DNA of 64,000 nucleotides from Nanobdellati archaeon (GTDB lineage Archaea > Nanobdellota > Nanobdellia > CSSed11-243R1), in assembly GCA_027007025.1 (NCBI GenBank), contig JALTFL010000004.1, positions 4,773 through 68,772 on the forward strand. Reading direction: 5' to 3'. Numbering within the stretch: position 1 is the stretch's first letter; each line of letters begins with the position of its first letter. Below are positions 14,354 through 62,644 of the stretch, piece by piece. The notes below the pieces were generated by a model. That model made no database searches. It saw only the letters and a program-made list of their open reading frames with translations, and was not told where the DNA came from. The translations under genes and the position numbers were made by a program.

Positions 14354-14354
14354 T

Positions 14355-16180: not shown

Positions 16181-16294
16181 TGGGCCCGGGGGGATTCGAA
16201 CCCCTGGCCTCCTGGTTAAAAGCAACACCTTCAAATCCAATTTTATTAGAATGAATTTGAAACAGGCGCTCTGACCAGGCTGAGCTACGGGCCC
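16181..16294 (-). tRNA. tRNA-Lys (anticodon UUU) with a roughly 39-nt intron at a non-canonical position in the anticodon stem
   Basis: Minus strand reads GGGCCCG-TA-GCTC-AGCCTGGTCA-GAGC-G-CCTG[intron]G-CTTTTAA-CCAGG-AGGCC-AGGGG-TTCGAAT-CCCCC-CGGGCCC-A; acceptor stem 7 bp, canonical D-arm and T-loop; one A:C mismatch at the top of the T-stem. Confidence 0.6.
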
Positions 16295-16504: not shown

Positions 16505-17749
16505 CTAATTGTATTCAGGGTTAGTTACTCTGCCCATGAATAGAATTTCGCCCGTATTTTTGTCCTCGATTATAAACATGAATGGATGATTTGCCCTAAA
16601 AACAGGTTGATGCATCTGAACAGCTGTAATCCCAACCGATACTTCTGTCGCAGCTGCTGCTTCCGTTCCCTCTTCATTTACATCAATGTATGCTTGGTGG
16701 ATTACACTTTGTATTAACAATCCACCTTTCTTTGACATACCAGTTAAATCCGCACCATATGAAAATGGTGTTGGCATTCCCATTTCCTTCAAATCATTTG
16801 CCATAAAATATTTTGTTTCAAATTTAAACCTCGGCAGGTAAACCCTAACTTCCTCACTGTGAAGCTTGCTTGTCAAATCATTTATTTTTTCAACGCTCAA
16901 ACTGTTTTCAAAATCATCTAAACTTCTTGGCAAGAAAACAATCATCGACAAGTTTCCTTTATATGGCAGCTCTAAAACTTGCGTTTCATTTTTTTCATAG
17001 TATGGAAAATCTTCTTTTATATACATCATATCAACAGAAATGTTGCCATCTGGTGTGATAAAATCTTCTTTGTGGGTTGCATTTTTGTTAAACTGGTGGC
17101 TCCAGTTTCCCTTGAAGTAAATCGCATTCGTCAAGACAAGGCGCGTTGCGGAGTTTAGTACTCCTTTCGGAATCAAGTCCTTTATTTTTCCGTTTGTCTG
17201 CTGTTCAATCCAAGTGTTTATTATATTACGTGCAGATTCCTCATCCGCAAAATTTAGATTTGTAACTTTTCCGCCATAAAATTCTTCAATTATATCAAAG
17301 TAATGCTGTGAAAACGGAAAATCTTTCTGCGCCCAAAGGGCGTTTGCAGTTCGCAAGGTATAATTCTCATTTGGAGTGTTGAGTATGTTGTAAATATGCG
17401 CGAACGAAGTCCTCAGCTCGCTCGTATTTCCAGGAAAATAAAAGACATTTTTTATTTCCTTCGCAGTTCTTCCGCGGGCACCCTCATAAACCATAGCAAA
17501 AGCAGATGATATGCTGTATGGCGAAAAGAAAACATTCTGATTTTCAAACTCTGTTGAGTATTTCTTGTACAAATCAATTGCGAACTTGTTGTTTGCTTCC
17601 GCAACCGCATTGAATCCTTGCGAAGTCCAACCACTATCCTTTAAGATAATAGCGTCTTTTGAAGTGATATTCTTTGGAGTAGTTACGCAGCCAAACACAA
17701 TCGCAACAGCGAATATAACCACAATTCCCATCAAAAATTTCGAGTTCAT
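16505..17749 (-). CDS. Serpin (serine protease inhibitor), secreted with lipobox-like signal
   Basis: Hinge EEGTEAAAAT, C-terminal PFMFIIEDKNTGEILFMGRVTNP, N-terminal hydrophobic segment ending FGC. Confidence 0.85.
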   Translation of the reverse strand: MNSKFLMGIVVIFAVAIVFGCVTTPKNITSKDAIILKDSGWTSQGFNAVAEANNKFAIDLYKKYSTEFENQNVFFSPYSISSAFAMVYEGARGRTAKEIKNVFYFPGNTSELRTSFAHIYNILNTPNENYTLRTANALWAQKDFPFSQHYFDIIEEFYGGKVTNLNFADEESARNIINTWIEQQTNGKIKDLIPKGVLNSATRLVLTNAIYFKGNWSHQFNKNATHKEDFITPDGNISVDMMYIKEDFPYYEKNETQVLELPYKGNLSMIVFLPRSLDDFENSLSVEKINDLTSKLHSEEVRVYLPRFKFETKYFMANDLKEMGMPTPFSYGADLTGMSKKGGLLIQSVIHQAYIDVNEEGTEAAAATEVSVGITAVQMHQPVFRANHPFMFIIEDKNTGEILFMGRVTNPEYN

Positions 17750-26832: not shown

Positions 26833-28092
26833 ATGGTAAGTTTTTTAATTAACAACTTGTTAAAAAATAACATGAAATCTAACTTAAAAATGGCAAAAAA
26901 AGCACAATATGCCGCAACAATTATTTTGATTGGTATGGCTGCGTTGTTTGTAATTTATACAATTTTAGCTTATCCAGAGGAAAAAGCAAGAATTCTCAAT
27001 ATAACTATTCCCAATGAAACAAATATATCTACTTCCCCTCTCGGAGAAGGAACAAGTTTAATATTCAGCAGCGGGGAAATAAGTGAAATCGGAAGGTCAT
27101 CTGGGGAAACTGTGTTCTCTTTCGGAATGCCAAATGCTTACGTAGCATACCCTGTTGATGAAAAAATTATAGATGATAGTAATATCTCCCTAAGAGCATC
27201 TGTACTAAAAGGGAGCATATCTTATTTTTCAGCAGATAATATAAACCTAGAAAACACAAAAGATGTGTTGATAAAATTAAATATAACTCAATTAAGCGGC
27301 AATCCAAAACTAATTGTGTTTCTTAACGGCTCAAGCATATTTGAGAATACCATCACAAACACAGGCGAAATAAACATTCGCGTGTCAAAAACACTGCTTG
27401 GCGAAAATAATCCCATTACATTGAAAGTCGAGCACAATGGCGCGTTTTGGACTACAAACACTCTAAATGCAAATGTCAAAATTGTACAGGAATATTACAA
27501 CCCTATCAATGTAATAGATGAAAAATATATATCTCTTGGACAAACAAATATAAAAGGAAATGAATTAAGCATATCTTTCATGCCAACTAAAGCCATTAGC
27601 GATGGAGATTTAATCGTCAAGGTCAACGGGAAAATTATATTCTCCGGAAAGGTAGAGGAAGGAAAAATATTCACCATAACCCAGAGATTTGATGAAAGCA
27701 ATATTAAGGTTGGAGATAATACAATAACATTCGAAGCAGACAAAGGCGGAGTGTATAATCTAACAAATGTCAAATTTGAATTTGTTGCAGTTACCACACC
27801 CGCAACCAACAAAATTTATTCCTTTGACATCCCAAATAAGTATTTAACATCTCAAAACGAGATTATACTTGGATTAAAAGTCGACAAGATTATAAAACCA
27901 GGATATATCTATGCAAAACTAGGAGACAAAGGACCTATTTATTACTTTGAAGACAGCGACCTCGCTTCGGGTGCGTGGTCCTATGCTGTTCTTGACAAAA
28001 CATACCTCAAAGAATTGGGGAACAAGCTTATAGTTGATTCTCCAAATGGAAGATATAGGTTAACAGGATTAGTGATAATCGCGAAGGAGTAG
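26833..28092 (+). CDS. Membrane-anchored extracellular protein (N-terminal TM, glycosylation sequon-rich)
   Basis: Hydrophobic anchor AATIILIGMAALFVIYTILA followed by many N-x-S/T sites. Confidence 0.5.
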   Translation: MVSFLINNLLKNNMKSNLKMAKKAQYAATIILIGMAALFVIYTILAYPEEKARILNITIPNETNISTSPLGEGTSLIFSSGEISEIGRSSGETVFSFGMPNAYVAYPVDEKIIDDSNISLRASVLKGSISYFSADNINLENTKDVLIKLNITQLSGNPKLIVFLNGSSIFENTITNTGEINIRVSKTLLGENNPITLKVEHNGAFWTTNTLNANVKIVQEYYNPINVIDEKYISLGQTNIKGNELSISFMPTKAISDGDLIVKVNGKIIFSGKVEEGKIFTITQRFDESNIKVGDNTITFEADKGGVYNLTNVKFEFVAVTTPATNKIYSFDIPNKYLTSQNEIILGLKVDKIIKPGYIYAKLGDKGPIYYFEDSDLASGAWSYAVLDKTYLKELGNKLIVDSPNGRYRLTGLVIIAKE

Positions 28093-28121
28093 AAGTATTA
28101 ATTTAAATTTTTTGTATACTT

Positions 28122-29756
28122 ATGAATATAAAGTCATCTCTTGCCATATTAACCACCTGGATAAAAGAAAATGGAGCAAAAGAAGAAATTTTAATAAGTC
28201 AATTAATTGACAATCAAGGCACAGTTAAAGAAGTTAAGGATGCAGCAAGATTTCTAAAAGAATATATCAACAATTTAGTAAATGCAGCTAATATTGTTTG
28301 TAAAGAAATAAAATTAAATAAAACCGCCAAAGTAAAAAAAGTTTATATAAATACAATAGAAGGTGAGTATGCATACTTCAATATAATAACTGGGAAGTTG
28401 TCTCTAAATATATACTTATTATATGAAGGATTATTATCAAAAGGACTATTTTTTATCCCATTTACAATATTCCATGAGATTGGACATTCTCTCCAAAAAG
28501 AGTTATTAAAAACAATAGAATCCACCAAAGGATACTCAGAAAAGGCAGTAAAATTACGAAAAGATGAGCTCGAGAACACATATAGGATAATCATAAGTAA
28601 TTTTAATGGGTTATACGAAATATTTGGGACTATTTTCCATAAATTACCTGAAGACAGCAGGCAATCAAGCCAAATAAAAGAAATCATTTCCTTAATTGTT
28701 GAGGATGTAAAATATTTTGAAGAAACTATGAATAATATGAATTATATATTCCCCGATATAAAAGGATTGAATCAAATAAAAAAAATTATCAATGAAATGA
28801 TAAAAACATTAGATTCAATTAAGGATTACTTAAATGAGGTAATTGATACAAACAATTTATCTGACATCCAAAAGATAAAAGGCAGAATTAACAAATATTT
28901 CACTGCGCTGCACATATACATAAATACATTTTATAACATCATCTCAGACAGAGAATTTATCGAATTGATGTATGCAATATCATTTTCAAACATATTGCTA
29001 GACTCATATGCCGACTTCTTTGCGATAGTCGCCCTCTCAGAATTATTCAGAGGAGAACCGATAGGCCAATTTTATTTAAGGTTTAGTCAATACAAAAAAT
29101 ACACAAGCAAAGCGTATCCACTTAGAGCTCTTATTTTATATGATAATCCCTCATTTATCAAAAAAGAATTAATCACTACTTTATCTATTGGGATAACGTC
29201 TAAAAAAATTGGACAGATATACAGAAAATTGCTAAAGTTAGAAGGATATCTTAAAAAGTACAGTAAATTAACAGAAGAAGAAAAGAATGTATTGGAGGAA
29301 GATTTTGGAAAATTTTTAAATGAATTGGACAAAGATAAGAATTACATTGTAAATTCACTGGAAGAAATTACAAATATAATTTTTGAATATTACAACAAGT
29401 TAATAAGCTCACTCGAAGGAAAGCACATAGGATTCACTAACTTGAGTAGTGTACATCACAGAATTCTTAGCGAGATAAGTTCTCTAAAAGCTTCAAAAGG
29501 AATATCTAATGAAAGCATTAAAAGAATAATGATTGAATTATTAAATGCAGATGAAGTTGCAGGAAACATTTTTGAATCAATTGAAAAACATGAAAGTAAA
29601 GAAAAAGTCAATGAAATATTATCAAAATTTGGGGCTGTGGATGCAGATTACAACAAGTATATCAACAAACTAAAAGATGTTTATCATAAAATTGATAAGA
29701 TGGATATAAATAGATTAATCAAGGAAATTAACATTCTTAAAAACATTGTTGAATAA
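28122..29756 (+). CDS. Hypothetical protein with HEIGH (HExxH) zinc-metallopeptidase-like motif
   Basis: FHEIGHSLQKE motif; remainder is helical and low-complexity; no signal peptide seen. Confidence 0.45.
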   Translation: MNIKSSLAILTTWIKENGAKEEILISQLIDNQGTVKEVKDAARFLKEYINNLVNAANIVCKEIKLNKTAKVKKVYINTIEGEYAYFNIITGKLSLNIYLLYEGLLSKGLFFIPFTIFHEIGHSLQKELLKTIESTKGYSEKAVKLRKDELENTYRIIISNFNGLYEIFGTIFHKLPEDSRQSSQIKEIISLIVEDVKYFEETMNNMNYIFPDIKGLNQIKKIINEMIKTLDSIKDYLNEVIDTNNLSDIQKIKGRINKYFTALHIYINTFYNIISDREFIELMYAISFSNILLDSYADFFAIVALSELFRGEPIGQFYLRFSQYKKYTSKAYPLRALILYDNPSFIKKELITTLSIGITSKKIGQIYRKLLKLEGYLKKYSKLTEEEKNVLEEDFGKFLNELDKDKNYIVNSLEEITNIIFEYYNKLISSLEGKHIGFTNLSSVHHRILSEISSLKASKGISNESIKRIMIELLNADEVAGNIFESIEKHESKEKVNEILSKFGAVDADYNKYINKLKDVYHKIDKMDINRLIKEINILKNIVE

Positions 29757-29795
29757 AACTTTTTAAATCAAAACAACCTTTAATTTTCGGTATAA

Positions 29796-31349
29796 ATGGG
29801 ATTAGGAAGAGATTTAATTGGCGGAGGAAAAGGAATTACCCCTAAAAAGAATGACAATGCAAATAAAGAAATAAAAGAGGAAGCCGAAAAAGTTTTTTTA
29901 AATAATGAAGGCGGAAACCATCCAAACGTCAGTATGAGTGGATCAGAAATAATAAGATCCTCCGGTGCAATAATGTTCTTCATAGGTATCGCATTGGGAT
30001 TCTTTTTTGGATTACAATTTCTTGCAATAGCAATATTAGGTATAATTTTATTCATAATAGCCCCTTACATTCACATACCAAGTGGCGAAGCACTAATAAC
30101 AATATTCATAATTGGGGGAGTTGTATTAATAGGTGTTGTTTGGTTTTTTGGTGTCGGCGGCGGACAGGCAACCGCAGGAATGGGGAATAGAGTAGGTGAA
30201 AGCTTTAGTGGATTATTCAACAACTATTTATTTAGAAGTATTGGAAATATGTTAAAGAATCCATTTGGAATAGGTGTAACTGGCGGTAAATATGAAGAAC
30301 AAGAGCAAAAAACAAAAGCCCCTCCAAACCAAGCATTTTCAATTAGCATAAGAGGTAATGTAAATACTGCTAAGATGAATCAACATTCATTGACATTTAT
30401 AGTAACTATCAAAAATCTCGGGAGTAGTAAGATAAATGAATTACATCTTCAATTGAATTCCTTGACACCATATGACAATTGCTTAGTAATCCCTGATGGA
30501 AATGAACGAATAATAAAAAATATAGCTCCATTCTCAACAAGAGAAGTTGTATTCTCCGGCGGATGGATTGATTTGAATAAAGTCAAAGAAGTGATTATAG
30601 ATAATGTGTTAAAACCAAATACAAACACACCGATTTATATACGTGCAACAGCGTGGACATATTATCCAACAGCATCTAGATTAGCAGTAGAAAGAATGAA
30701 AAGCGATTTTGGAGTCTTGTTGATAAAAAATAATGCCCTCAGGCAAAAATCAACAGGAGCTATCTATAAATATGGTTCTGCAATGACGATTGACATGGAC
30801 ATAGGCCCACAACCAATCCTTGATAATTCCAATTCTGCTGCATTATTGTTAAAATGGCAAAATGTTGGCAATGGAAATATGAAATCAAATATGTCCCCCA
30901 TGTTATTTATTGTCACTCCAAAAGATTTCGGAAAGTGTATACCTGCAGGGTATATAGCTTACAAAGATGCAGAAAATTTACAATGTGACAAGACAAAAGA
31001 TAGCGCGGCAGGGTGTATCGTCTGCGACAACGAATTAGTTAACAGTTGGTGTGATAAAAATAGTAAAGTATGGACAGATATATCTAAATACACACCAGAC
31101 GCACTTTCCACATTAGAGTGGGTGTGTGATGTAGCTAAAAATGGTGAAAAACACGTCTGTGGCACAACTGATTTAACTATGGAATTTAATGTATTCACTT
31201 GCAGTTTAAATGTGCCTAAGATAAGCACAACGGAAGATATTGTTACAGATTATATAACAACTATAGCCACATATCCTTATGAAGTTAACTCTCAAACTGT
31301 AAAAGTTAATACGTTCTGCACAAGTGACCAAACAGGGTGTGGTGGATAA
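29796..31349 (+). CDS. Polytopic membrane protein with Cys-rich extracellular C-terminal domain
   Basis: Several hydrophobic helices in the first 130 aa; about 10 Cys in the C-terminal 120 aa. Confidence 0.5.
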   Translation: MGLGRDLIGGGKGITPKKNDNANKEIKEEAEKVFLNNEGGNHPNVSMSGSEIIRSSGAIMFFIGIALGFFFGLQFLAIAILGIILFIIAPYIHIPSGEALITIFIIGGVVLIGVVWFFGVGGGQATAGMGNRVGESFSGLFNNYLFRSIGNMLKNPFGIGVTGGKYEEQEQKTKAPPNQAFSISIRGNVNTAKMNQHSLTFIVTIKNLGSSKINELHLQLNSLTPYDNCLVIPDGNERIIKNIAPFSTREVVFSGGWIDLNKVKEVIIDNVLKPNTNTPIYIRATAWTYYPTASRLAVERMKSDFGVLLIKNNALRQKSTGAIYKYGSAMTIDMDIGPQPILDNSNSAALLLKWQNVGNGNMKSNMSPMLFIVTPKDFGKCIPAGYIAYKDAENLQCDKTKDSAAGCIVCDNELVNSWCDKNSKVWTDISKYTPDALSTLEWVCDVAKNGEKHVCGTTDLTMEFNVFTCSLNVPKISTTEDIVTDYITTIATYPYEVNSQTVKVNTFCTSDQTGCGG

Positions 31350-32527
31350 TGATGAAACATAAAGAATGGATATTGATTGTATTATTGTTTTTATTAGTCG
31401 TTTCTTTCGGATGTGTTGGCGAATCCAAACCAACAAATGAAACAAAGTTAGATGTGGAACAAGGAGTTGGTGTCGTTGGTAAGCTTAAATTTGACGAATT
31501 GCACCCCGGACTTGAAGGGTATATATCATTGGATGTAAGAAGCAACCTCGAAGGTGAAGGTGCTGGCAACGTTTTAATTGCGATAGATAATGTGAACCCC
31601 TTTAAAATAGTTGAATGTGGAGTAGTGCATAACAATGCAAATGACAATAGAAAATGTTCAGGACAACTTGACTTAGACAAAGGATTACCTGTAAGGGAAC
31701 ACAAAACAAGGCAACTTGTTCCTGGAAATGAAATAAATGTATTTTGGAGATTGAAAGCTCCAGGAAAAGATGAAATCTCTAATATCGCACTAAAACATCC
31801 ATTATATTATACTGTGTCATATGATTATAACGTAAAATTCCACCAAAACATTGTCTTTATGTCGCAAAATGAAATGATTAAGCGGAGACAAGCCGGTGAG
31901 GATTACATGATTTCAGGAGAATCAGGAAACACAGCAGGTGAGTTGAGATTTTCCGGCTCAACACAACAACCTATTATTTACTTCTTTGATTATGGTCCGC
32001 ATGAAAAAGAAGAATCTACTTTTTCATTCGCTACTCAATACCTCGTCGAAAACAAAGGAAAAGGATTTCCAATATCTGATGTTGTAGTCTTATTGGAATA
32101 CCCAAAAGATGGTATAGCTTTAGATGATAGTACACCTGAAGGAACACCAAACTATCAAGTCTATGGATGGCACAAATGGAATAATTGGGACGGTAAGATT
32201 TTATTGGATGATGGAAGTAGTATTGATTGCAGAACGGGCGATGAAAACAATCCACAAATAAACTGTAAGATATGGGTTGAGCAAACATTGGGAGATGACT
32301 TTAAAAAAATTGATACTACACATCTAATTGCAAAAGTCATTAAGAGAGAAAATTTTGTGGATTCATTTTCAATATACGCTCCATTTGTTATGACAGGTAA
32401 GGAAAGAACACACTTAAGGGATAGTAATATCCCCATGAAGATATACCCATTCAATGTCTATGCGATGTATAGATATTTCACAATTGGAAAAGATTATATT
32501 ACAGTATACCCTGTTAGGGGGATATAG
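31337..32527 (+). CDS. Secreted lipobox protein
   Basis: N-terminus LIVLLFLLVVSFGCVGES. Confidence 0.5.
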   Translation: MWWIMMKHKEWILIVLLFLLVVSFGCVGESKPTNETKLDVEQGVGVVGKLKFDELHPGLEGYISLDVRSNLEGEGAGNVLIAIDNVNPFKIVECGVVHNNANDNRKCSGQLDLDKGLPVREHKTRQLVPGNEINVFWRLKAPGKDEISNIALKHPLYYTVSYDYNVKFHQNIVFMSQNEMIKRRQAGEDYMISGESGNTAGELRFSGSTQQPIIYFFDYGPHEKEESTFSFATQYLVENKGKGFPISDVVVLLEYPKDGIALDDSTPEGTPNYQVYGWHKWNNWDGKILLDDGSSIDCRTGDENNPQINCKIWVEQTLGDDFKKIDTTHLIAKVIKRENFVDSFSIYAPFVMTGKERTHLRDSNIPMKIYPFNVYAMYRYFTIGKDYITVYPVRGI

Positions 32528-32540
32528 GAGGTAAGATAAA

Positions 32541-33398
32541 ATGAAAAAGGAAGGATTAATTATTTTAATTGCACTGTTTGCATTAGCATTCACATTTGGA
32601 TGTACAATGGGTGGTGAAAAGTCAAATAACACCAACACCGGCAATGGATATACCCTGAAAGTAAGTCCAAAAAATGTAATCTCGGAGGGAGTAATTACAA
32701 TAGATTTGAGATTAAAGAATATATTTGACAACGACATGAATAATGTCGAAGCAAGTATAAAGGATATACCTTCAACTTTCACGGGCACAGAAAAGGTAGA
32801 AGGTGTTACAATTGTAAAAGGTCAAGAATATCCGATGATATGGAGTATAACTGCACCAAGTACGGATTTAAAACAAAGCATAAATCCGAAAGTGGAAGTT
32901 TGCTTTGATTACACAACTAACTTTTATTTTGATACAGCATTAGTGCCAAGGGACAAGGCAACAGAAGAAGTTCAGGTGCAAAGCGGGTATTCGAACGGAC
33001 CTATCTCAGTAACACAAATGGGACTTGACAAAATATTCCTTAAAGAGGATGGAACTGGATTTATAACAGGTTCACTGGATATCAAAAATAACTGGCAGGG
33101 GCATATACAATCAATTAATAAAATAACAATAACCCCAAGTGGATTGACAGGCGGCATCAAATACGCAAGCTGTGGAGGGGACACCGTAACAACAATAACC
33201 CCAAGTACAGCAAACTGTGATATATTAAATAATAATTTGGCAATTGGAGATGGATTGATAACAACAATCAAATTAAGCACGACATCAGGCGGAAGCAGTA
33301 TATCCACTGAAAGGACAAATGGAGAAGTTGATTACACCTACTGTTATGATATACCATTAGGAACAATAACTGTCTGTCCTGTAGGACAAAGATGTTAG
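32541..33398 (+). CDS. Secreted lipobox protein, paralogue of 33408..34349
   Basis: N-terminus ALFALAFTFGCTMGG; shared CFDYTT...VP.D block with the downstream gene. Confidence 0.55.
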   Translation: MKKEGLIILIALFALAFTFGCTMGGEKSNNTNTGNGYTLKVSPKNVISEGVITIDLRLKNIFDNDMNNVEASIKDIPSTFTGTEKVEGVTIVKGQEYPMIWSITAPSTDLKQSINPKVEVCFDYTTNFYFDTALVPRDKATEEVQVQSGYSNGPISVTQMGLDKIFLKEDGTGFITGSLDIKNNWQGHIQSINKITITPSGLTGGIKYASCGGDTVTTITPSTANCDILNNNLAIGDGLITTIKLSTTSGGSSISTERTNGEVDYTYCYDIPLGTITVCPVGQRC

Positions 33399-33407
33399 GT
33401 GGATTAA

Positions 33408-34349
33408 ATGAATAAAAAAATTTTGTTTGCATTTTCTTTATTGTTTTTGTTAGCTCTCTCTCTTGGGTGTATAGGAGGAAATAAAAATAGTAATAACAAC
33501 GCCCAAGCTACAAGCGGAACATTAAATGCTACAATATTGATAAACGGTGTTCAAAGGAATAATATGGTACTAGTGTCTGAACAAAACGCACAAATTGGAT
33601 TAAAACTCAAGAACAATGGAAATGAACCAATTGAAAATGTTACTGGGCGTGTTCTCGGATGTCTTAATTCAAGCGATGCATTTACCGAAGAAGTTTTGCC
33701 ACATACTCAAAAGTATCTAAGCTGGGATGTTAAAGCCCCAGAACTTGGAGAAGGCGAGAAAATAAACTGTCCGACTACAATAAGAATCTGCTTTGATTAC
33801 ACCACGAAAGGATACACCGATTTGGTATTTGTACCCGAAGATTATAATGAAGCCCCCCCTTCACCAAGCTACACTGTTTCGGGCGACTACCTTGGTATAA
33901 ATTATAAATTTGGAGTCGCAAGAGTTATGAAACAAGGAGATAATGAGATGAATGGAGAGATAACAATTAATAACATAGGCGATGGATGGGTAGATTATAT
34001 AAATTACACGAATGGAGTGTCTTTGAATACACTAAGAAAAGTAAATATAACCCTTATAGGGGATAACATTGCAATATCCAAATTCGGTGGATTGGATCAA
34101 AGTGAATTAAGTAATTGGTTGAGCAACGACAAAAAAACACTAATACTCACAGCGGACAACACAAAAGAGGGGTATAGTTATCTTACAAAACTTGTGCAGG
34201 GCAAAAGTTTATTCTTGAAACTCAACATAAATGTAACCAACCCAAACAGCTTCCAAGATGGAACAAAGATATACCAGCTTAGAACAGAAATAAATTATGG
34301 TTATTGTATTGACATAGCAACATTAGACACAACATTGAGTGGAAGGTAA
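33408..34349 (+). CDS. Secreted lipobox protein, paralogue of 32541..33398
   Basis: N-terminus LLFLLALSLGCIGGN; ICFDYTTKGYTDLVFVPED block. Confidence 0.55.
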   Translation: MNKKILFAFSLLFLLALSLGCIGGNKNSNNNAQATSGTLNATILINGVQRNNMVLVSEQNAQIGLKLKNNGNEPIENVTGRVLGCLNSSDAFTEEVLPHTQKYLSWDVKAPELGEGEKINCPTTIRICFDYTTKGYTDLVFVPEDYNEAPPSPSYTVSGDYLGINYKFGVARVMKQGDNEMNGEITINNIGDGWVDYINYTNGVSLNTLRKVNITLIGDNIAISKFGGLDQSELSNWLSNDKKTLILTADNTKEGYSYLTKLVQGKSLFLKLNINVTNPNSFQDGTKIYQLRTEINYGYCIDIATLDTTLSGR

Positions 34350-36352: not shown

Positions 36353-36651
36353 TTAACACCAACCATCTCAAATTTTTTAGCCCTGAAACCCTGTTTTCTC
36401 ATATGCATCTTCCCGCATTCTGAGCACTTGTACCTCAAGTCTATCTTCTTCGTCAACTTTACACCCCACTTCTTTGAGTTTTCCGGCTTTGGACGTGGGA
36501 AACCTGTATAACCATCAATTTTCCTTTCATACCTTCTAGCACCTATAGTTAATTTCCCTCTTTTCTTACCTGATTTAACTTGTACTAATTTATGTTTTGT
36601 TTTTTTCTTACAATACGGGCAGTATCTATTGATTTCCTTTGGTATCTTCAT
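36349..36651 (-). CDS. rpl44e: Ribosomal protein L44e (eL42)
   Basis: CPYCKK...CSECGK zinc ribbon, basic; start taken at MKIPKEIN (ORF track extends to 36675). Confidence 0.8.
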
Positions 36652-37258
36652 TATCATCACTTTCCTTAATTTCAATAGCTTTTCCTTCCTTTATTAAGAT
36701 TTCCCCGACGTCTAATGGGAGACTCCCATCATCATCTTTGTTAAAAGGACCATATGTTTCCCCATCCTTCCACAAAAACGCAGGTATGTCTTCGATAAAT
36801 TTCAGCTTTTTTAAACCTTTTTCTTCTTCTTTTTCCTCTCTTTTTATATCAATCGAAGGGGGTGCTTCAAATTTAGACATAAATCTATTCGTATACTCAT
36901 TAACAGTATTTATTATAGAGTTATACATATCCTCCTCTTCAGGAAGCATGTTCTCGGTATTATGAACCCTTGCGGAAAGGTTGTTCAGTGCCTGCATGAC
37001 AATTTTCCTTCTTCTTCTGCTACATATATCCTCAATTATCCTTTTGACATTTCTTAATTCATACTCATTCTTTTCTATTGCCTGCGATGAGAAAACATTA
37101 TTTTTGTCCTTATTTTCATCGATTATCTTTTCCTTATTAGAGATATATTCCTTAATCTTTAAAAAGAAATCAGGAGTTAATTCTTGCAGTGCCCTGTTGT
37201 CCCTCTCCAGCGCCTGTATTTTTCTTATCTCCTCATATGAAATTACTTCACTAGTCAT
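36626..37258 (-). CDS. Probable GINS subunit (Gins51/Gins15-like)
   Basis: Helical N-terminus YEEIRKIQALERDNRALQELTPDFF; located between primase and L44e, as in the conserved primase-GINS pairing. Confidence 0.45.
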   Translation of the reverse strand: MTSEVISYEEIRKIQALERDNRALQELTPDFFLKIKEYISNKEKIIDENKDKNNVFSSQAIEKNEYELRNVKRIIEDICSRRRRKIVMQALNNLSARVHNTENMLPEEEDMYNSIINTVNEYTNRFMSKFEAPPSIDIKREEKEEEKGLKKLKFIEDIPAFLWKDGETYGPFNKDDDGSLPLDVGEILIKEGKAIEIKESDDNEDTKGNQ

Positions 37259-38535
37259 TTCCTTCTCATCCTTTTCATTTTCTTAAATGGGTACACCACA
37301 GGGTTTTTGATTTTCTCACATGTCTTATCTGGTGTACATATCCCCAAGTCTAAGTAATAATTTTGATTCTTGCACCCCGGCGGAAGATATGAACCTTTCA
37401 CCTTTTTATGCCAATTGAGCTGGGAGTTTATATAACTTTCCCGAAGCGGCTCCGGATTGTGCTTGTTCCACTCAAAAACTTCTTTTTTTATGGACTCAAA
37501 GTCCCATCCTACACTTCTCAAGAAATTAATCAAAATGAAAAGGGCTCTCTTGCGTCCATCCTCTAATCCCTTGTAAATGTTCTTTATACACGGCGGGAAA
37601 AACTCTTTTGGGATTGCCTCCTTTGGAATTTCGAAGTCCCCATTAAGCTCTTTTATCTCATTTTTGACATCCTGGTTCATCTTCCAATCAAAAGCCTGTA
37701 TAAAAAGCTGCTTTGCCTCGTTGACTTTGAACCTGTCCAAAAACCCGAGGTTAACTTCAACATTTCTGTACTCCGCCGATTTTTTATCAAATGACAAAAT
37801 ATCCTTTTTGCGTATTGGGATAGAAACAAGCCATGTTTTTTCATTAAAAGTGTATGGCATCCTAAAAAGGTGACGGGACGAAATAGCTACAGTATCTATA
37901 TCCAGAAGTTTATAAGGGTCAAGCTCTCCACCCGCAACAACTTCATCAAATTTCTTTCCTGTTCTTTTCAATATTTTTTTTATATCTCCATCTTCAAACT
38001 GCAAAATTTGCTCGGCAAGCTGGCTTTTTATCATATCACGTATATATCCTGCGATAATTCGTGCACCTTCGGGGAAAAGCAAGCGTGTTTCCTGCCCATT
38101 TATCTCCCTTGGAAATGATTCAAAAGGAATACCTATATGGAAACCCGTTCCTCCGCTAAATTTAACAGAATAATTTTTAATGCCGTGAAATTCAATGGCA
38201 TCACATATCAAATTGGCGCAAATTTTAGAGTATTCCAAATGGCGAGAGTCAATGTCAAATATCAAGTCCCATCCGGTCCTAAGCTCGTCAAGTTCTTTCT
38301 TTTTTATATCCTGCCTAAGCAAAAGTGGGTTTTTCCATCTCTCCATCGAGGCGTGGAAAGAAGTAGCCCCCCTTCTAGCTAATTGAACTATGTCATCTTC
38401 GTATATTAAAGAATCTGGACGTTTACCTACTTTATCATTAAATCGCGTAACTATTTCTCTGCCTCTGGCAAGTGCAAGAATTGCAGATTGTACTTTAGTA
38501 TTTGAATAAAATCTTATTATATCTGATAGATGCAT
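37255..38535 (-). CDS. priS: DNA primase catalytic subunit PriS with C-terminal Cys-containing extension
   Basis: LIFDIDS and SGGTGFHI catalytic motifs; C-terminal about 110 aa contains four Cys (PPC, PPGC, GIC, TC). Confidence 0.7.
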   Translation of the reverse strand: MHLSDIIRFYSNTKVQSAILALARGREIVTRFNDKVGKRPDSLIYEDDIVQLARRGATSFHASMERWKNPLLLRQDIKKKELDELRTGWDLIFDIDSRHLEYSKICANLICDAIEFHGIKNYSVKFSGGTGFHIGIPFESFPREINGQETRLLFPEGARIIAGYIRDMIKSQLAEQILQFEDGDIKKILKRTGKKFDEVVAGGELDPYKLLDIDTVAISSRHLFRMPYTFNEKTWLVSIPIRKKDILSFDKKSAEYRNVEVNLGFLDRFKVNEAKQLFIQAFDWKMNQDVKNEIKELNGDFEIPKEAIPKEFFPPCIKNIYKGLEDGRKRALFILINFLRSVGWDFESIKKEVFEWNKHNPEPLRESYINSQLNWHKKVKGSYLPPGCKNQNYYLDLGICTPDKTCEKIKNPVVYPFKKMKRMRRK

Positions 38536-38623
38536 AAGGTAAGATAAGATTGAGAATTATTAAAACCTTACGATAAAACAAATTAGCAACCTTAATAAAT
38601 GTCATCCCTTTTCAAATGTTAAA

Positions 38624-39535
38624 ATGGTATTGGAATTATTGATATTTGCTATAAGTATTGTTGCGGTAATCTCATCAGTTGATTTTACTTCAAAGTCCAT
38701 TTCAAGCTTAGCCGATAGAATGGGTGTCCCAAAATATCTTGTAAGCACAATAATCCTCTCAATTATTGTATCCTTACCTGCCTTTTTAGCTATGATTTAC
38801 TCAAATTTATTTAATGTGCCAACTCTTGGTTTCTCGACGCTCATTGGGTTTTCAATAGGTGTTTTGACAATAGTGATGGGTATTATATTGATAAAAGATG
38901 AAGTGCCAATCGAGTATGAAAGGTATAGAAATGCAACATTTATGTGGGCTGCTACCATACTTTTTTTCGTAGTTAGCTTGGACCAGCTGATTGACAGGAT
39001 GGACGCATTATTTTTGTTGGCACTATTTTTATTTTATGGAATGTATGTTTATTACCGCACAAAAAACGCCAAGGAGTATACATACACGAAGGGAATGCCT
39101 TTCAACAAGGTTCTCTTGATTCCAGCGATAGCAACTATCATTATAAGCGTATTCGCGTGCGTAGCTGCAATATCCATCATGAGTTACAACTTTGTTATAC
39201 CATCCGCGCTGTTTAGTCTTACAATTTTCGGAACATTGCTCGCATTGCCACTAATAGACCTAACAAAAATATTCAAGGCTCCTATTTTAACCTTCGACAG
39301 CGTGCTTGGAAGCATCGTTGTTACGTTAACATTGATACCCGCTATCGCGGCGTTGGTTAAACCTATCCCTTATAACCTAAATTACAATTATGGGTTCTTA
39401 CCTTTGCTGTTTTTGAGTATCATTTCATTGTCATTCGCGATTTCAACAAGGCTAAAATCAAAGATACACAAAAAAACCGGCATTGCCCTATTGGCATCAT
39501 ATGTAGTTTATATTCTCCTGATTTTGTTTAGTTAG
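38624..39535 (+). CDS. Polytopic integral membrane protein
   Basis: Eight or more hydrophobic helices across 303 aa. Confidence 0.5.
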   Translation: MVLELLIFAISIVAVISSVDFTSKSISSLADRMGVPKYLVSTIILSIIVSLPAFLAMIYSNLFNVPTLGFSTLIGFSIGVLTIVMGIILIKDEVPIEYERYRNATFMWAATILFFVVSLDQLIDRMDALFLLALFLFYGMYVYYRTKNAKEYTYTKGMPFNKVLLIPAIATIIISVFACVAAISIMSYNFVIPSALFSLTIFGTLLALPLIDLTKIFKAPILTFDSVLGSIVVTLTLIPAIAALVKPIPYNLNYNYGFLPLLFLSIISLSFAISTRLKSKIHKKTGIALLASYVVYILLILFS

Positions 39536-39570
39536 AAAAGTTTTTATAGTTGTAACTCCTTAGTAATAAT

Positions 39571-40221
39571 ATGAAAACCTTACTGCTTATATCAATATCA
39601 TTATTGATGATTTCAATAGTATATGCCACAAATGTAGATACTACAATCCCTCGTGATGTATATAAAAATGAATATTTTAACATCACACTAAACGTAAATT
39701 CTGATTCTAGCAAGTTGGATATAGCAGAGTTTATACCCAAAGACTGGAAAATTTCAGAATGGAGTACCTCACCAGAAACAAGCACGACACTTAACTCTAA
39801 TCTTCAAAGTTTTATGGGAAAAGAAAGGATGATGTACCATTGGAAGTTTAATTCCGCTCAACACAAATTCAAAATTAATATGAAGGTTTTGGCCAAAGGG
39901 AAGGGGGAATTTGAGTTTATCACTTTGTGGATAACACCAAAGGAATTCGATAAAATTTCTAAGAGTGTTAGTGTAACTGAAAAACCCGCGACAACATCAA
40001 CCATAACCGGGCACGCAATAGCTATTGAAAACAAAAATACAAACAGTACTGCACAAAACACTACGCATACCATCCAGATTAACACTACATACACACAACA
40101 TAATCTAACGCAGCAAAATGAAACACCCATAAACGAAAATTATGAAACACAGACTCACAAAGAAAATGCACTCTCTATGATATTTTCAACATTAAAAATC
40201 TGGATATCTAATTTATTCTAA
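39571..40221 (+). CDS. Secreted protein with Thr/Asn/Gln-rich C-terminal region
   Basis: N-terminal signal MKTLLLISISLLMISIVYA; low-complexity T/N/Q tail. Confidence 0.45.
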   Translation: MKTLLLISISLLMISIVYATNVDTTIPRDVYKNEYFNITLNVNSDSSKLDIAEFIPKDWKISEWSTSPETSTTLNSNLQSFMGKERMMYHWKFNSAQHKFKINMKVLAKGKGEFEFITLWITPKEFDKISKSVSVTEKPATTSTITGHAIAIENKNTNSTAQNTTHTIQINTTYTQHNLTQQNETPINENYETQTHKENALSMIFSTLKIWISNLF

Positions 40222-40226
40222 TAAAA

Positions 40227-40973
40227 TTAATCGGTGTCGACTCTTGGGGCGAGGATGAAACTCAACTGGTACTTGTCAATTTTGTTGCAGTCCAGCCTTA
40301 AAGGATAATCCGTTGAAAAGTTCACAACTATTTTATCCGTCGGCTTGACGCCTTTCAGTATTTTTTCCATATAATCTATTGAATACTTCGACTTTTGCTC
40401 GCCGTCTGTCTCAAGAGAGACCAAACTTGGAGAATCCTTCGCCAGTTCCAACTGCGTTTCTGAGATATCTCCAAACGATTTAATCACAAAGGAATTTGCA
40501 TTTGCTTCAAGAACAACGCAGTCAGAAACCATTGACGCATCCTTCACACCATCTTTCAAAACGTTTGCAAAAAGTTCCACCTTAGACTTAAACGACAATG
40601 ACGGCATGTTGTGGCTTCCATGTGGGGTGTCTATTAGCGGAATTGAAAAATTCCTCTTGAAGTCCCCCACCATACTTATCTTTAACTTGCTCTCGGAGAG
40701 CTCAAGTTTTATCTTGTCATTAGCTCTTGCTCTTTTTAAAATAGAAACAAAGTTTGGAAGATTAATTGTCATTTCGCTTTCTTCCTCAAAGTTGTATTCC
40801 AAAAATGCGCTCGGAAGAATCTTAAAAATAACCATAGCAACCGAGGCGGGGTCCATGGCAATCAAATCCAACCCATTCTTGCTTACCTTAAATGTTCCTT
40901 CATTTATCAATAAAGAAATGGCATCCAAACTGTCTTTGAGTACTGAGATATCCTGAATTAATGCCTTAAACAT
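40227..40973 (-). CDS. pcn: DNA polymerase sliding clamp (PCNA)
   Basis: 248 aa with PCNA-like two-domain layout and acidic C-terminus. Confidence 0.8.
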   Translation of the reverse strand: MFKALIQDISVLKDSLDAISLLINEGTFKVSKNGLDLIAMDPASVAMVIFKILPSAFLEYNFEEESEMTINLPNFVSILKRARANDKIKLELSESKLKISMVGDFKRNFSIPLIDTPHGSHNMPSLSFKSKVELFANVLKDGVKDASMVSDCVVLEANANSFVIKSFGDISETQLELAKDSPSLVSLETDGEQKSKYSIDYMEKILKGVKPTDKIVVNFSTDYPLRLDCNKIDKYQLSFILAPRVDTD

Positions 40974-48737: not shown

Positions 48738-49982
48738 ATGGAAGAAACAAATGTTCAAGAAATTGAAACTTATCCTTTGGTTGTGTTTAATTACGGTGGG
48801 AATGAAATAAAATTCGCGGAAGCCACGATATGTAATAATTCCAATGAATTAAAATATTGTGTAAATGAAATCGAACTTGAGGAACATGAAAGCGATATTT
48901 ACTATGAAATCCTAAAACGAATAAAAAAAATTGACAAGGAAAAAAACCTAAGAAAGTTAAGTCAACAAGATGCGTTCAGGTTCATAGACTATAAAATAAA
49001 AGAAACTTGTCATGAGATGAGAGAAGATATTTCCACTCAAGAGAAGACAAGGATAAAATATTTTCTATATAAAAATTACTTTGGATTCGGAGAAATTGAG
49101 CCATTGTTTTATGACAAGGACGTAAAATATATTTTCTGCGAGCGTCCTGGATTGCCGATTTACATTTTTCACAAAAATCCAAGATATGGATTTATGAAAA
49201 CAAACATCGTACTGAGGAGCATAAGAGAATACAAACTGATATCTGAAAATCTCAAATTGAAATCTAAAAAGCTGAGAGAATCTCCTGATTTCTTTGGCAT
49301 ATTGGAGGACAAACAAGTGGTTGAAGTGAGTGATTCTCATAGAGAATTTAGCATAACCCGCTTCTCAAAAATGCCGACATCCCCAAGAGATATGGTAAAA
49401 CTAAAACTAATTCGGAGGGATGTTTTGGTGTATCTATATAGGATAATCAAAAATAGAGGTTCTGTGCTTATCATTGGAGGAAACTCATCCCAAAGAATTC
49501 AATTAGCTAATTCATTGGCTCTCCTTACCGACAAAAAACTGAAAGCAGTCATCTTTGAAAAAACACCCAGTATCATCCTGCCACACAATGACGCATACTA
49601 CAAAGTGCTTCCGCTTTATGAAAAAAAACATAAACACGTGATAAAAGAATACTTGAGGAAAAATCCAGAGCTAGTAATCTCAGCAGAGATTGAAACAAAC
49701 AAGCAAACAATAAAAAACATAAAACATAAGTGTCAAACATTCATAACTATTGAAGCAAACGATTTGGACAATGCAATTAAAATACTTAACAATGAAGTAC
49801 CTGCACCGTGGATATCCTACATAGATGTCATAGTAAAAATAAAGGAATCAATTGGATGGCCACGTGTAGACGAAATTTATGAAATTACAGCATATGACGC
49901 CCAGTCAAAAATGCTTATGATATCTCCAATTTTTTACAACAATGTTTTGAGAAAAAGCAAATTACTTAGCCAGCAAAGTTAA
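48738..49982 (+). CDS. Secretion-ATPase-like protein (FlaI/VirB11/TadA-like layout) with degenerate P-loop
   Basis: VLIIGGNSSQRIQLANSLALL...KAVIFEKTPSIILPHND occupies the position and spacing of Walker A plus the IEDT box, but the GxxGSGKT residues are replaced. Confidence 0.4.
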   Translation: MEETNVQEIETYPLVVFNYGGNEIKFAEATICNNSNELKYCVNEIELEEHESDIYYEILKRIKKIDKEKNLRKLSQQDAFRFIDYKIKETCHEMREDISTQEKTRIKYFLYKNYFGFGEIEPLFYDKDVKYIFCERPGLPIYIFHKNPRYGFMKTNIVLRSIREYKLISENLKLKSKKLRESPDFFGILEDKQVVEVSDSHREFSITRFSKMPTSPRDMVKLKLIRRDVLVYLYRIIKNRGSVLIIGGNSSQRIQLANSLALLTDKKLKAVIFEKTPSIILPHNDAYYKVLPLYEKKHKHVIKEYLRKNPELVISAEIETNKQTIKNIKHKCQTFITIEANDLDNAIKILNNEVPAPWISYIDVIVKIKESIGWPRVDEIYEITAYDAQSKMLMISPIFYNNVLRKSKLLSQQS

Positions 49983-51152
49983 TTCGCCGTCAGTCAACCC
50001 AAATTCTTCCTTGATATGTTTCTTCTTGACTTTCTTTGTCTTTATCAAAATCTTTAACAGGGGAACATAATCCTTCAAAAAGACGCTTGATGAAACATGA
50101 AATTTGGGGGCTATCTTTCTGGATGTTGATTTCATAGAACTTCTTAAATTTTTGCTCTGCGACAACTTAAGGAGCCTTGATGGAAAAGCATACCTCACAA
50201 ATCTCTTGCTCTTGACTGGGGCATTTATATTTATACCTGCAGTGGACAAAATTTTGGCATATTTGTAAAATCCGTAATACTGCCTACGCCTTATCCTGCC
50301 TAAAAATACATCGCTTCTGGAAACATTTTCATAAGCACCAGCAATAGTTATTGGATTTGTGTACTCATTGCAGATGTTCTCAGAAACCCATAGTATACCA
50401 GTATTCAAATCTATGTCCGCTACATCAAACACAATAAGCACGTCCATCGAAAATGGAGACTTAAATATTTTCTGCATTGCTGAGAAGACATTCTTTTTTA
50501 TATTCCTGTCGCACAAAAAGACATTGTCCTTTGTAAGTTTATTGTCAATTGCAATCGATGCTTCCAAATCATTTATTGCTGCCCTTAAATCTCCGTCTGA
50601 AGATTTAGCGAGCAATTCAACTGCGCTATAATCATACTCAATTCCTTCTGAGTTAAGAATTGAAATTAACTTAGCCATAATCTCCTTGTAAGTCAGTTTT
50701 CTGAACTCAACCTTTTCACAATACGGACGTAAGAATTTAAACTTTTGATTCCAAAAATCAAGCCCAATAACAACAACAGGCACACCAGACTTTCGTATAA
50801 GCTCTGCTACTTTAGCAATAGAACGTGAATTTAGAGAATCTATTCCATCTATCAAAACCAATCGTTTTTTCCCAAAGATACTGGCGGTGTTTATAGAGTT
50901 ACTTATTAAGGAATCCATTTTTTCTGTATCTCTCAAATCGTCCGCCGTAAGTTGTATTACTTCATAATCCATTTCTTTTATTATCACACGAATTGAAGCC
51001 GTCTTGCCGACGCCCGGCTGTCCAAATATAAACAAACCCTTTTTCTTTTTATGTGACTCTAAAAAATTGATAATTTTAGATATAGCCAGCTTTTGCCCTA
51101 CTATCTCATCTATCTTCTTTGGAGAATATTTAATCAATAAATTTGTCATCAT
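49962..51152 (-). CDS. rfcL: Replication factor C large subunit
   Basis: Walker A FGQPGVGKT, AAA+ clamp-loader layout, lysine-rich C-terminus. Confidence 0.8.
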   Translation of the reverse strand: MMTNLLIKYSPKKIDEIVGQKLAISKIINFLESHKKKKGLFIFGQPGVGKTASIRVIIKEMDYEVIQLTADDLRDTEKMDSLISNSINTASIFGKKRLVLIDGIDSLNSRSIAKVAELIRKSGVPVVVIGLDFWNQKFKFLRPYCEKVEFRKLTYKEIMAKLISILNSEGIEYDYSAVELLAKSSDGDLRAAINDLEASIAIDNKLTKDNVFLCDRNIKKNVFSAMQKIFKSPFSMDVLIVFDVADIDLNTGILWVSENICNEYTNPITIAGAYENVSRSDVFLGRIRRRQYYGFYKYAKILSTAGININAPVKSKRFVRYAFPSRLLKLSQSKNLRSSMKSTSRKIAPKFHVSSSVFLKDYVPLLKILIKTKKVKKKHIKEEFGLTDGELTLLAK

Positions 51153-51766
51153 ACCAAACCGTTTTTCTTAAGAATTTTCATAAGTCTGTCCATATCAAGC
51201 TTTCCGGAGCCTTTTATCATTTCTAAATCCGAAATATCGTTTTCGTCGTCGTTGTTCATTTTTGAAAAGTAAATTTCTTCCAAAGGCGCGACTCTAAAAA
51301 ATCCTTTCCCACTCTTTCCTCTTCCGAAGTAACCCCATATTTCCTTGACATCGGAATCAAAAATGCTTTTTGAAAATACCATCTCTTTATCATTATAATT
51401 CAATGTATAAGATTTTCCATCAAATTTTCCTAAGACAATGTTTATCCTTATATCTCCACTTGGTGATGATTTTTTAGATTTTATAACATCTTGAGTTATG
51501 GAATAAATTGTGTAATTCATCTTGAAAAGAAGTTCAAGAATTTTGTTTTTCGCAGAAGCGTCCGAAATTATAATCCCCGTTGGAACGTGTTTTGTTTGTA
51601 TCCCTCTGGCAAGAAGGGCATATTCACCAAAGACACAGTATTTTATCTTCAGGGTATCAAATAAATTCCCCATTTTAGTCATTTCTTCTAGACATGCCCT
51701 TTCCAACTTTTGCTTATCCACAAACATTTCAATCAACCGCCGCGAATTGAGCAAGAAGAGACTCAA
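51149..51766 (-). CDS. Hypothetical protein inserted between rfcS and rfcL
   Basis: 205 aa; overlaps the rfcS stop and the rfcL start; no recognisable motif. Confidence 0.4.
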   Translation of the reverse strand: MSLFLLNSRRLIEMFVDKQKLERACLEEMTKMGNLFDTLKIKYCVFGEYALLARGIQTKHVPTGIIISDASAKNKILELLFKMNYTIYSITQDVIKSKKSSPSGDIRINIVLGKFDGKSYTLNYNDKEMVFSKSIFDSDVKEIWGYFGRGKSGKGFFRVAPLEEIYFSKMNNDDENDISDLEMIKGSGKLDMDRLMKILKKNGLV

Positions 51767-52679
51767 TTTGAAGATACTCGTCAGAACCTTCCACTATCCT
51801 AAACTCATATTCCCCAATCTTGTCTATCAATTTTATTTTCTTCCTATCATCAATATCCATATCCCAAACAATTTTGTTTATCAACTTTATGACATCCAAA
51901 CCGCTTAATCCATATTTTAACATAACATCAAGCATCCTGTCCTTCGCTTTTTTTATGTCTCCTTTGACCGCAGTCTCAAGAATCTCCTTCATCTCTTTTG
52001 GCTTTGCTATCCCTGCAACCGAATAAACAGATTCTTCAGAAATATTTTTGTCCAAAGCCGAACAGCTTTGAAGTATGTTTGTAACTTTTCTCAAATCACC
52101 ATCGCTTGAGTCAATTACAGCTTGAATTGCCTTGTCATCAATTTTTAGTTTTTCCTCTTTGGCAATCCTATTTATGTAATTCTTGACATCTTCCTCACTC
52201 AAAGGTTTAAATCTGAAAACAACACATCTTGATTGGATTGGAAGGATAATTTTTGATGAATAATTACAATCCAAAATGAATCTACAGGTTGTAGTATATT
52301 TTTCCATCATCCTTCTGAGAGCGTGCTGAGCTTCGCTTGTGAGGGCGTCGGCTTCGTCAAGAAGGATAATTTTAAAAGGTGCATCAATGGGCTTTGTTCT
52401 CGCAAAGTCCTTTACTTTTGTGCGTATCATATCAATACCCCTCTCATCACTCGCGTTCATCTCAAGGAAGTTTGAGTGCCAATTGTCTCCAAAAAGCTCC
52501 TTAGCCATAGCCATTGCACACGTGGTTTTTCCAACTCCTGCTGGTCCAGCGAAAAGAAGGTGTGGCACATTCTTGTTTTTTACAAAAGCAGAAAGCCTAT
52601 TCACAATCTCCTTCTGTCCAACCACGTCATCTAGTTTGGAAGGGCGGTATTTTTCTGTCCAAATTTCAAGCTTATCCAT
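51729..52679 (-). CDS. rfcS: Replication factor C small subunit
   Basis: FAGPAGVGKTT, LLDEADALT, SRC motif QSRCVVF. Confidence 0.9.
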   Translation of the reverse strand: MDKLEIWTEKYRPSKLDDVVGQKEIVNRLSAFVKNKNVPHLLFAGPAGVGKTTCAMAMAKELFGDNWHSNFLEMNASDERGIDMIRTKVKDFARTKPIDAPFKIILLDEADALTSEAQHALRRMMEKYTTTCRFILDCNYSSKIILPIQSRCVVFRFKPLSEEDVKNYINRIAKEEKLKIDDKAIQAVIDSSDGDLRKVTNILQSCSALDKNISEESVYSVAGIAKPKEMKEILETAVKGDIKKAKDRMLDVMLKYGLSGLDVIKLINKIVWDMDIDDRKKIKLIDKIGEYEFRIVEGSDEYLQIESLLAQFAAVD

Positions 52680-60397: not shown

Positions 60398-61015
60398 ATG
60401 ACAAGTATGGTATTCACAGAAAAATCATTAGAGGAATGTCTTGAAGAAATTGGATTTGATAAAGATAATTTAGTTAAGCGAAGATTATCAGATCGTGAAA
60501 GAGAGCTATGGAAAATTTCAACAGGAGAATATCCTGGAGAATATAGACTACCTCATTTAATAGACGTTACTTCTCCGCCAATCCGTGGGGATATACACAA
60601 ACAAATATTAGATGGTGGAAGTTTAGAAATAAACTATTCAGTAAATGTAACATTAGATAGCTATATAAGCGAGCTGAAAGACGTTGACAAGATAGCTTTT
60701 ATCTTTCTAAAAAAGCTACCAAAAAGACCGGACATCTTTTTCTTTTCCGAAGTTTTTACCAACTGCATAGAATGGGGAAATGACAACGAGGGAAAGCTAG
60801 ACATCCACATATGGGCCACCAACAAAGGAAGTCTAACTGCGATCACTCAAAAGAACGAATGGGACTATAAGAAGTATATCAGCGATTTCAAAAATGAAAT
60901 AGCAAAACCGAAAGGTGGAGGAGCGGGAATGTGGGTAATTGACAAAAGTCCCTATGAAGTTGGATATACAAACAACGGCCGAACCACATACATTTTAATA
61001 ACAAAAAAATGGTAA
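60398..61015 (+). CDS. Hypothetical protein
   Basis: 205 aa, no motif recognised. Confidence 0.4.
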   Translation: MTSMVFTEKSLEECLEEIGFDKDNLVKRRLSDRERELWKISTGEYPGEYRLPHLIDVTSPPIRGDIHKQILDGGSLEINYSVNVTLDSYISELKDVDKIAFIFLKKLPKRPDIFFFSEVFTNCIEWGNDNEGKLDIHIWATNKGSLTAITQKNEWDYKKYISDFKNEIAKPKGGGAGMWVIDKSPYEVGYTNNGRTTYILITKKW

Positions 61016-61112
61016 AATGAAATACAGACTCATCGAAAAATCAATATAATAATATTTTAGTTAGAAAAAACCTATTTATTTAACAATCACATCAAACTTC
61101 TACTTCATCTAT

Positions 61113-62573: not shown

Positions 62574-62644
62574 TATACCACCTCACAAGTTAAACTACAC
62601 AATCTAATAAAAACTTTTTGTAATTCAAGAGTGTAAAAAATAGT

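Follow-up and report, generated by a model that had tools for sequence, protein, structure and literature searches.

A fusion of the primase subunits PriS and PriL was noted in Nanoarchaeum equitans in 2005 (Iyer et al. 2005) and was put forward in 2014 as a synapomorphy of nanosized archaea (Raymann et al. 2014, PMC3914693). In all genomes of DPANN cluster 2 and the Undinarchaeota a fused gene replaces the canonical priS and priL, while cluster 1 genomes carry the canonical pair (Dombrowski et al. 2020, PMC7414124). NEQ395, the 393-aa protein of N. equitans, is monomeric and has high primase activity; it synthesises RNA primers about 9 nt long and holds a [4Fe-4S] cluster (Schneider, Bergsch & Lipps 2023, PMC10250227). 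Its essential residues are H58, D87/D89, H125, D194, H202 and R205, with the D87/D89 double mutant being inactive; with S119A, polymerase activity is lost and primase activity largely so, and mutations of R301, R303 and F306 abolish priming while elongation is kept (PMC10250227). The cluster ligands are C289, C364, C376 and C384; in cysteine-to-alanine mutants the brown colour and the absorbance at 410 nm are gone, and the cluster is dispensable for in vitro activity (PMC10250227). The two domains do not complement each other in trans, and the length of the linker between them sets primer length, a shorter linker leading to aborted short primers (PMC10250227). Here these systems are compared with the gene at 37255-38535 on the reverse strand of a 64,000-nt stretch of DNA from a Nanobdellati archaeon (GenBank assembly GCA_027007025.1, contig JALTFL010000004.1, positions 4,773 to 68,772; hereafter the window). 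Very probably, the gene specifies the replicative DNA primase of an archaeon from the Nanoarchaeota/Woesearchaeota group of DPANN, and its product is of the fused, single-chain type typical of this clade. The fusion of PriS with the C-terminal domain (CTD) of PriL is already known, the family having been described and partly characterised.

The gene is a complete open reading frame (ORF) whose ATG is the first available start, lying 7 codons past an in-frame upstream stop, and homologs share its N-terminal MHLSDII. The preliminary description of the window had reported a 426-aa protein with PriS catalytic motifs and a C-terminal segment carrying four cysteines in the contexts PPC, PPGC, GIC and TC, and both statements were borne out: the motifs of the archaeo-eukaryotic primase (AEP) superfamily are present as DID (D94/D96), SGGTGFH (S127 to H133) and D214..RH222..R225, and, of the six cysteines in the whole protein, four lie in its C-terminal quarter in exactly these contexts (FPPC316, PPGC388, GIC400 and KTC406). 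The features of the gene are as follows.

37255-38535, reverse strand: fused PriS-PriL(CTD) primase gene, 426 aa, ATG start, TGA stop at 37255-37257
37726-38535, reverse strand: PriS-type AEP catalytic domain, aa 1-270 (PF01896 over aa 93-242; family profile; Foldseek)
38248-38256, reverse strand: AEP motif I, D94-I-D96, predicted metal-binding carboxylates (122/122 homologs; spacing as in NEQ395 D87/D89)
38137-38157, reverse strand: AEP motif II (sxH), S127-GGTGF-H133 (S127 and H133 in 122/122; S..H spacing of 6, as in NEQ395 S119/H125)
aa ~150-210: helical insert between motifs II and III, a clade-specific part
37861-37896, reverse strand: AEP motif III region, D214...R221-H222...R225 (D214, H222 and R225 in 122/122; spacing as in NEQ395 D194/H202/R205)
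37606-37725, reverse strand: linker, aa 271-310; in the AF2 model, DSSP assigns a long helix to aa 275-298, after which comes a loop of lower confidence
37285-37605, reverse strand: PriL C-terminal domain, aa 311-417 (~110 aa), predicted to hold a [4Fe-4S] cluster
37588-37590, reverse strand: Cys316 codon (FPPC), predicted cluster ligand 1 (121/122; aligns to FPPC of Pyrococcus abyssi PriL)
37537-37554, reverse strand: R328/R330/F333 segment of the PriL-CTD (R330 and F333 in 122/122; R328 is R or K in 122/122)
37372-37374, reverse strand: Cys388 codon (PPGC), predicted ligand 2 (122/122; aligns to PPNC of P. abyssi PriL)
37336-37338, reverse strand: Cys400 codon (GIC), predicted ligand 3 (120/122; aligns to LC of P. 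abyssi PriL)
37318-37320, reverse strand: Cys406 codon (KTC), predicted ligand 4 (122/122; aligns to HC of P. abyssi PriL)
37258-37284, reverse strand: basic C-terminal tail KKMKRMRRK, aa 418-426
38557-38565, reverse strand: A/T-rich TATA-like element TTTTAATAA, ~22-30 nt upstream of the primase ATG, read from the sequence

The TATA-like element TTTTAATAA is a possible archaeal promoter, which would serve a short-leader or leaderless primase mRNA.

The homology of the two halves of the protein to canonical primase subunits was evaluated with domain profiles, PDB sequences and structural models. In Pfam, PF01896 (PriS) matched aa 93-242 with 26.4 bits, the cutoff being 26.8, and PF04104 (PriL) matched aa 295-389 with 22.3 bits against a cutoff of 22.4, through the C-terminal part of the profile only (positions 87-189). 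Many close homologs of the protein do have a precomputed PF04104 hit, and also one to PF01896. The NCBIfam PriL models aligned aa 287-424 with model positions ~201-336 of 360 (E 1.2e-8), and no region of the protein matched positions 1-200 of the PriL models. The single protein searched against PDB sequences retrieved P. abyssi PriL (9f26_B), including the FPPC and 'Y.PP.C...C.PD..C...NP..Y' motifs, and a profile of 34 family members matched both P. abyssi PriL (E 1.3e-8) and human PriS chains (E 4e-4). For a profile of the C-terminal 131 aa the match to P. abyssi PriL reached E 1.4e-9, accompanied by weak matches to Sulfolobus PriL and PriX, and in the alignment the four cysteines fall in the same columns as those of P. 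abyssi PriL. The comparison with the PriL C-terminal domain that had been proposed with the preliminary description hence places the C-terminal module in PriL. With the full AF2 model (mean predicted local distance difference test, pLDDT, 89.7) as query, Foldseek returned only AEP/PriS-type structures from the PDB, among them AEP polymerases and the PriS proteins of human, yeast and Pyrococcus. Hits to the full model are governed by its larger N-terminal domain, and the C-terminal 131 aa were therefore modelled separately; the modelled domain has the helical PriL-CTD fold and matches Fe-S PriL-CTD structures. Between the two domains, model confidence falls to a pLDDT of 68-76 around aa 291-310, and the linker (aa 271-310) is the least conserved part of the homolog alignment and bears indels. 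One ORF therefore encodes an N-terminal PriS domain and a PriL CTD, without the PriL N-terminal domain, as in the fused DPANN-type primases; the separate subunits and the PriL N-terminal docking domain of the canonical heterodimer were not found at this locus, which is a single ORF.

A homolog search returned more than 4452 full-length matches, the best 120 of which are 416-492 aa long (median 432) and 48-100% identical to the query, and conservation was counted in an alignment of 122 homologs spanning the same range of identity. H61, D94, D96, S127, H133, D214, H222, R225, R330, F333, C388 and C406 are invariant (122/122), C316 and C400 are nearly so (121/122 and 120/122, respectively), and position 328 holds only R or K. 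For the four C-terminal cysteines, such conservation goes beyond chance, while the N-terminal pair is poorly kept (C106 in 57/122 and C111 in 28/122). In canonical PriS there are a zinc-binding motif and additional helical or C-terminal elements; since the N-terminal domain studied here has only two cysteines, neither of them conserved, a PriS-type zinc site is unlikely in this primase. A Lys/Arg-rich tail of variable length is found in nearly all homologs of the alignment. All named homologs among the matches listed come from Woesearchaeota, Nanoarchaeota or Nanoarchaeia metagenome-assembled genomes (MAGs), and the six matches in GTDB genomes are all to DPANN-labelled MAGs or to an unclassified archaeon MAG. 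Among species-representative genomes, those nearest are MAGs labelled Nanoarchaeota, Woesearchaeota or Parvarchaeota, with 48-84% identity, and an identical protein is encoded on WALP01000002.1 of GCA_015522785.1. According to the domain hidden Markov models (HMMs), a single ORF holds both domains in 8/8 fetched loci, namely those of six related genomes and two with the identical protein. Database entries for this protein are unnamed or hypothetical.

Like NEQ395, the protein combines in one chain a PriS domain, a long helical linker and a four-cysteine PriL-CTD, without the PriL N-terminal domain, and, like NEQ395, it is presumed to be the sole primase of its cell. The spacing of the conserved residues is that of NEQ395 from serine to histidine in motif II (+6), from aspartate to histidine (+8) and on to arginine (+3) in motif III, from the first cysteine to the two arginines (+12 and +14) and the phenylalanine (+17), and from the second to the third cysteine (+12), so that R328, R330 and F333 are placed relative to C316 exactly as R301, R303 and F306 are relative to C289. 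By this spacing, the conserved residues appear to correspond to every residue mutated in NEQ395. The two proteins differ in length (393 aa in NEQ395 versus 426 aa here) and in the distance between the last two cysteines (8 versus 6), as well as in their hosts, N. equitans being a hyperthermophile and the present organism a Woesearchaeota- or Nanoarchaeia-like MAG of 36% GC. With respect to the fused family of DPANN cluster 2 and the Undinarchaeota, the architecture is identical and the present gene is an ordinary member, with no notable difference. The canonical PriS-PriL enzymes (P. abyssi 9F26, human p49/p58) have a catalytic domain and an Fe-S C-terminal domain that are both homologous to those found here, and presumably share the initiation mechanism in which the CTD holds the initiating nucleoside triphosphate (NTP), but they consist of two polypeptides and the N-terminal domain of canonical PriL docks on PriS. 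PolpTN2, from the Thermococcus nautilus plasmid pTN2 (PMC3973330), also carries PriS-like and PriL-CTD-like domains in one chain; it is, however, the plasmid-borne primase/polymerase of a mobile element and has been reported as an independent fusion without sequence similarity to DPANN primases. Other C-terminal or accessory modules lack the four-cysteine Fe-S site, as is the case for Sulfolobus PriX (4WYH, 5OF3), which is moreover a separate third subunit, and for the helix-bundle domains of the pRN1 ORF904, RepB' and NrS-1 primases.

By analogy with NEQ395, D94, D96, D214, H133, H222 and R225 of the PriS domain would serve to bind two metal ions and the elongating NTP, and the domain would form phosphodiester bonds with the help of the two metals. 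The PriL-CTD would be scaffolded by a [4Fe-4S] cluster on C316, C388, C400 and C406, and its R328, R330 and F333 may hold the initiating NTP, or the 5' triphosphate end of the primer, for synthesis of the first dinucleotide. The helical tether would stand in for docking by the PriL N-terminal domain, which would be unnecessary because PriS and the PriL-CTD are covalently linked, and by limiting how far the domains can separate it would restrict primers to about 9-10 nt. The enzyme would probably act as a monomer.

The surroundings of the gene are those of a chromosomal replication locus, and include the following neighbours.

36626-37258, reverse strand: Gins51/Gins15-type GINS gene (Pfam Sld5 over aa 7-125, Gins51_C over aa 151-197)
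40227-40973, reverse strand: PCNA gene, 1.7 kb upstream of the primase gene (Pfam PCNA_N 1.1e-15, PCNA_C 8.3e-6)

The ATG of the GINS gene overlaps the primase stop codon (ATGA), an arrangement that suggests co-transcription and translational coupling of the two genes, and gins lies directly downstream of the primase gene in 6/7 related loci with downstream sequence. Beyond GINS, the downstream genes encode L44e, S27e, aIF2-alpha and Nop10. The linkage of PriS and Gins15 is known, and PCNA-PriS-Gins15 together with L44E-S27E-aIF2alpha-Nop10 forms a conserved archaeal arrangement (Berthon et al. 2008, PMC2643942); the primase locus is this PCNA-PriS-Gins15 / L44e-S27e-aIF2α-Nop10 cluster. RFC-L, RFC-S and MCM are also encoded within the window. 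In the GINS protein the helical A domain precedes the C-terminal B domain, which is the Gins51/Gins15 order, yet the best NCBIfam match of the protein is a weak one to 'Gins23'. The interval 38624-40221 is occupied on the forward strand by genes for a membrane protein of the Na+/Ca2+ exchanger family and for a 216-aa, Thr/Asn-rich predicted secreted protein without a family match, and these two genes break the otherwise conserved adjacency of PCNA and PriS.

Several points weigh against the assignment to a fused, self-contained replicative primase. Both Pfam matches fall slightly under the gathering scores, so that homology of the single sequence to the canonical subunits is remote; the Foldseek search with the C-terminal domain alone gave weak matches (E 0.5 or worse), with PriX and PriL-CTD among the top ones; the correspondence with NEQ395 derives from spacing and published residue numbers and not from a direct alignment; and a separate priL was looked for in only 64 kb of the genome. 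Four other explanations, all of them unlikely, were weighed. The four cysteines could form a structural zinc site (Cys4), with the C-terminal module being a zinc-binding, DNA-binding domain distantly related to PriL. Four conserved cysteines fit either metal, and the Pfam match to PriL is marginal; the spacing C-x71-C-x11-C-x5-C, however, has no CxxC knuckles and matches the PriL pattern seen in NEQ395 (C289, C364, C376, C384), the cysteines align column by column with those of P. abyssi PriL, and the modelled fold resembles Fe-S PriL-CTD structures, making a zinc site highly unlikely. A zinc ribbon as such was ruled out by the PriL-like spacing and the lack of CxxC pairs. The preliminary description had suggested a single-polypeptide primase with a reduced PriL-like module binding either Fe-S or zinc; the single chain and the PriL Fe-S domain stand, and zinc is disfavoured. 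An origin by error, through a frameshift or misassembly joining adjacent priS and priL genes, has nothing specific in its favour beyond a report of the short primase of Nanosalina J07AB43 as two adjacent genes, and its probability is practically negligible given that the identical protein is found on independent NCBI, Logan and ENA assemblies, that thousands of homologs share its length and architecture, and that the PriL N-terminal domain is wholly missing, which is not expected from simple read-through.

The two remaining explanations concern the role of the gene in the cell. As an independently fused primase-polymerase of an integrated plasmid or virus, comparable to PolpTN2 or pRN1 ORF904, it would not be the chromosomal replicative primase. 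This is extremely unlikely, since the gene overlaps gins within the universally conserved PCNA-PriS-Gins15/LSIN cluster, the synteny is kept in relatives down to ~70% identity, the GC content of the gene (0.36) is like that of its flanks, no integrase or other mobile-element gene adjoins it, and no second primase is found in the window. A fused primase might, on the other hand, still work with a separate canonical PriL or a PriX-like subunit encoded elsewhere in the genome, and it is true both that 64 kb were examined and that, as Sulfolobus PriX illustrates, additional primase subunits can occur and go unnoticed. The window had been described initially as lacking a separate PriL gene, and the searches agree: in a six-frame translation of all 64 kb, the family N- and C-domain HMMs matched the primase ORF only (next E-values 0.09 and 0.9), and there was no further Pfam match to PF01896 or PF04104 in 44 of the 51 window ORFs of at least 150 aa, the other seven being the three at the end (60398-63943) and four that overlap larger opposite-strand genes. 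In addition, NEQ395 is monomeric, active alone and not complemented in trans (PMC10250227), surveys of DPANN cluster 2 genomes report the fused gene only, and the fusion, having no PriL N-terminal domain, offers no counterpart of the surface through which that domain docks. A partner subunit of this kind is accordingly very improbable, and the fused protein is probably the only primase encoded in the genome.

Other parts of the window showed features not directly related to the primase. The genes for the large (49962-51152) and small (51729-52679) RFC subunits, on the reverse strand, are separated by a 205-aa ORF (51149-51766) that overlaps both and had no match in Pfam, PHROGs or NCBIfam. In the RNA polymerase operon (8791-15860, reverse strand), not only is there the usual A'/A'' split, but RpoB is divided as well, into B'' (14355-15860) and B' (12539-14353). 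An Rfam tRNA of 114 nt (16181-16294, reverse strand; 49.5 bits, full model 1-71) was found where a bacterial-mode ARAGORN scan reported no tRNA in the whole window, and its ~40 extra nt suggest an intron-containing archaeal tRNA missed by that scan. Serpins are sporadic in archaea, and a full-length serpin gene (PF00079, E 1e-124) lies at 16505-17749 on the reverse strand in what is apparently a small DPANN genome. Six consecutive forward-strand ORFs at 26833-34349 (419, 544, 517, 396, 285 and 313 aa), the same six genes being called on the NCBI contig, had no match in Pfam, PHROGs or NCBIfam; the GC content is 0.285 at 28-30 kb versus ~0.36-0.40 elsewhere in the window, and the cluster could represent lineage-specific surface or host-interaction genes, or an integrated element. 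For a 414-aa ORF at 48738-49982 on the forward strand, NCBIfam gave a remote match to FlaI, the archaellum/type IV ATPase (E 1.3e-15, far under the family cutoff), and Pfam gave none at E 0.001 or better; the ORF may encode a divergent secretion or pilus ATPase.

Returning to the fused primase, a more speculative idea concerns its clade-specific parts. The insert at aa ~150-210 and the Lys/Arg-rich tail might have taken over the partner contacts of the missing PriL N-terminal domain and of the PriS accessory parts, with the co-transcribed Gins51 or PCNA as partners that could be contacted in this way. This idea is doubtful, but, if true, it would imply a self-contained primase docked directly on a CMG-like helicase. 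As a discovery the gene carries little weight, the fusion having been known since 2005, recognised as a clade character in 2014, shown in 2020 to occur throughout DPANN cluster 2 and the Undinarchaeota, and examined biochemically in 2023. Its value is instead that of a taxonomic marker, which assigns the window to a genome of DPANN cluster 2, and of a further natural example of a minimal archaeo-eukaryotic primase, where the role of the Fe-S cluster, a matter of debate, may be studied within one chain.
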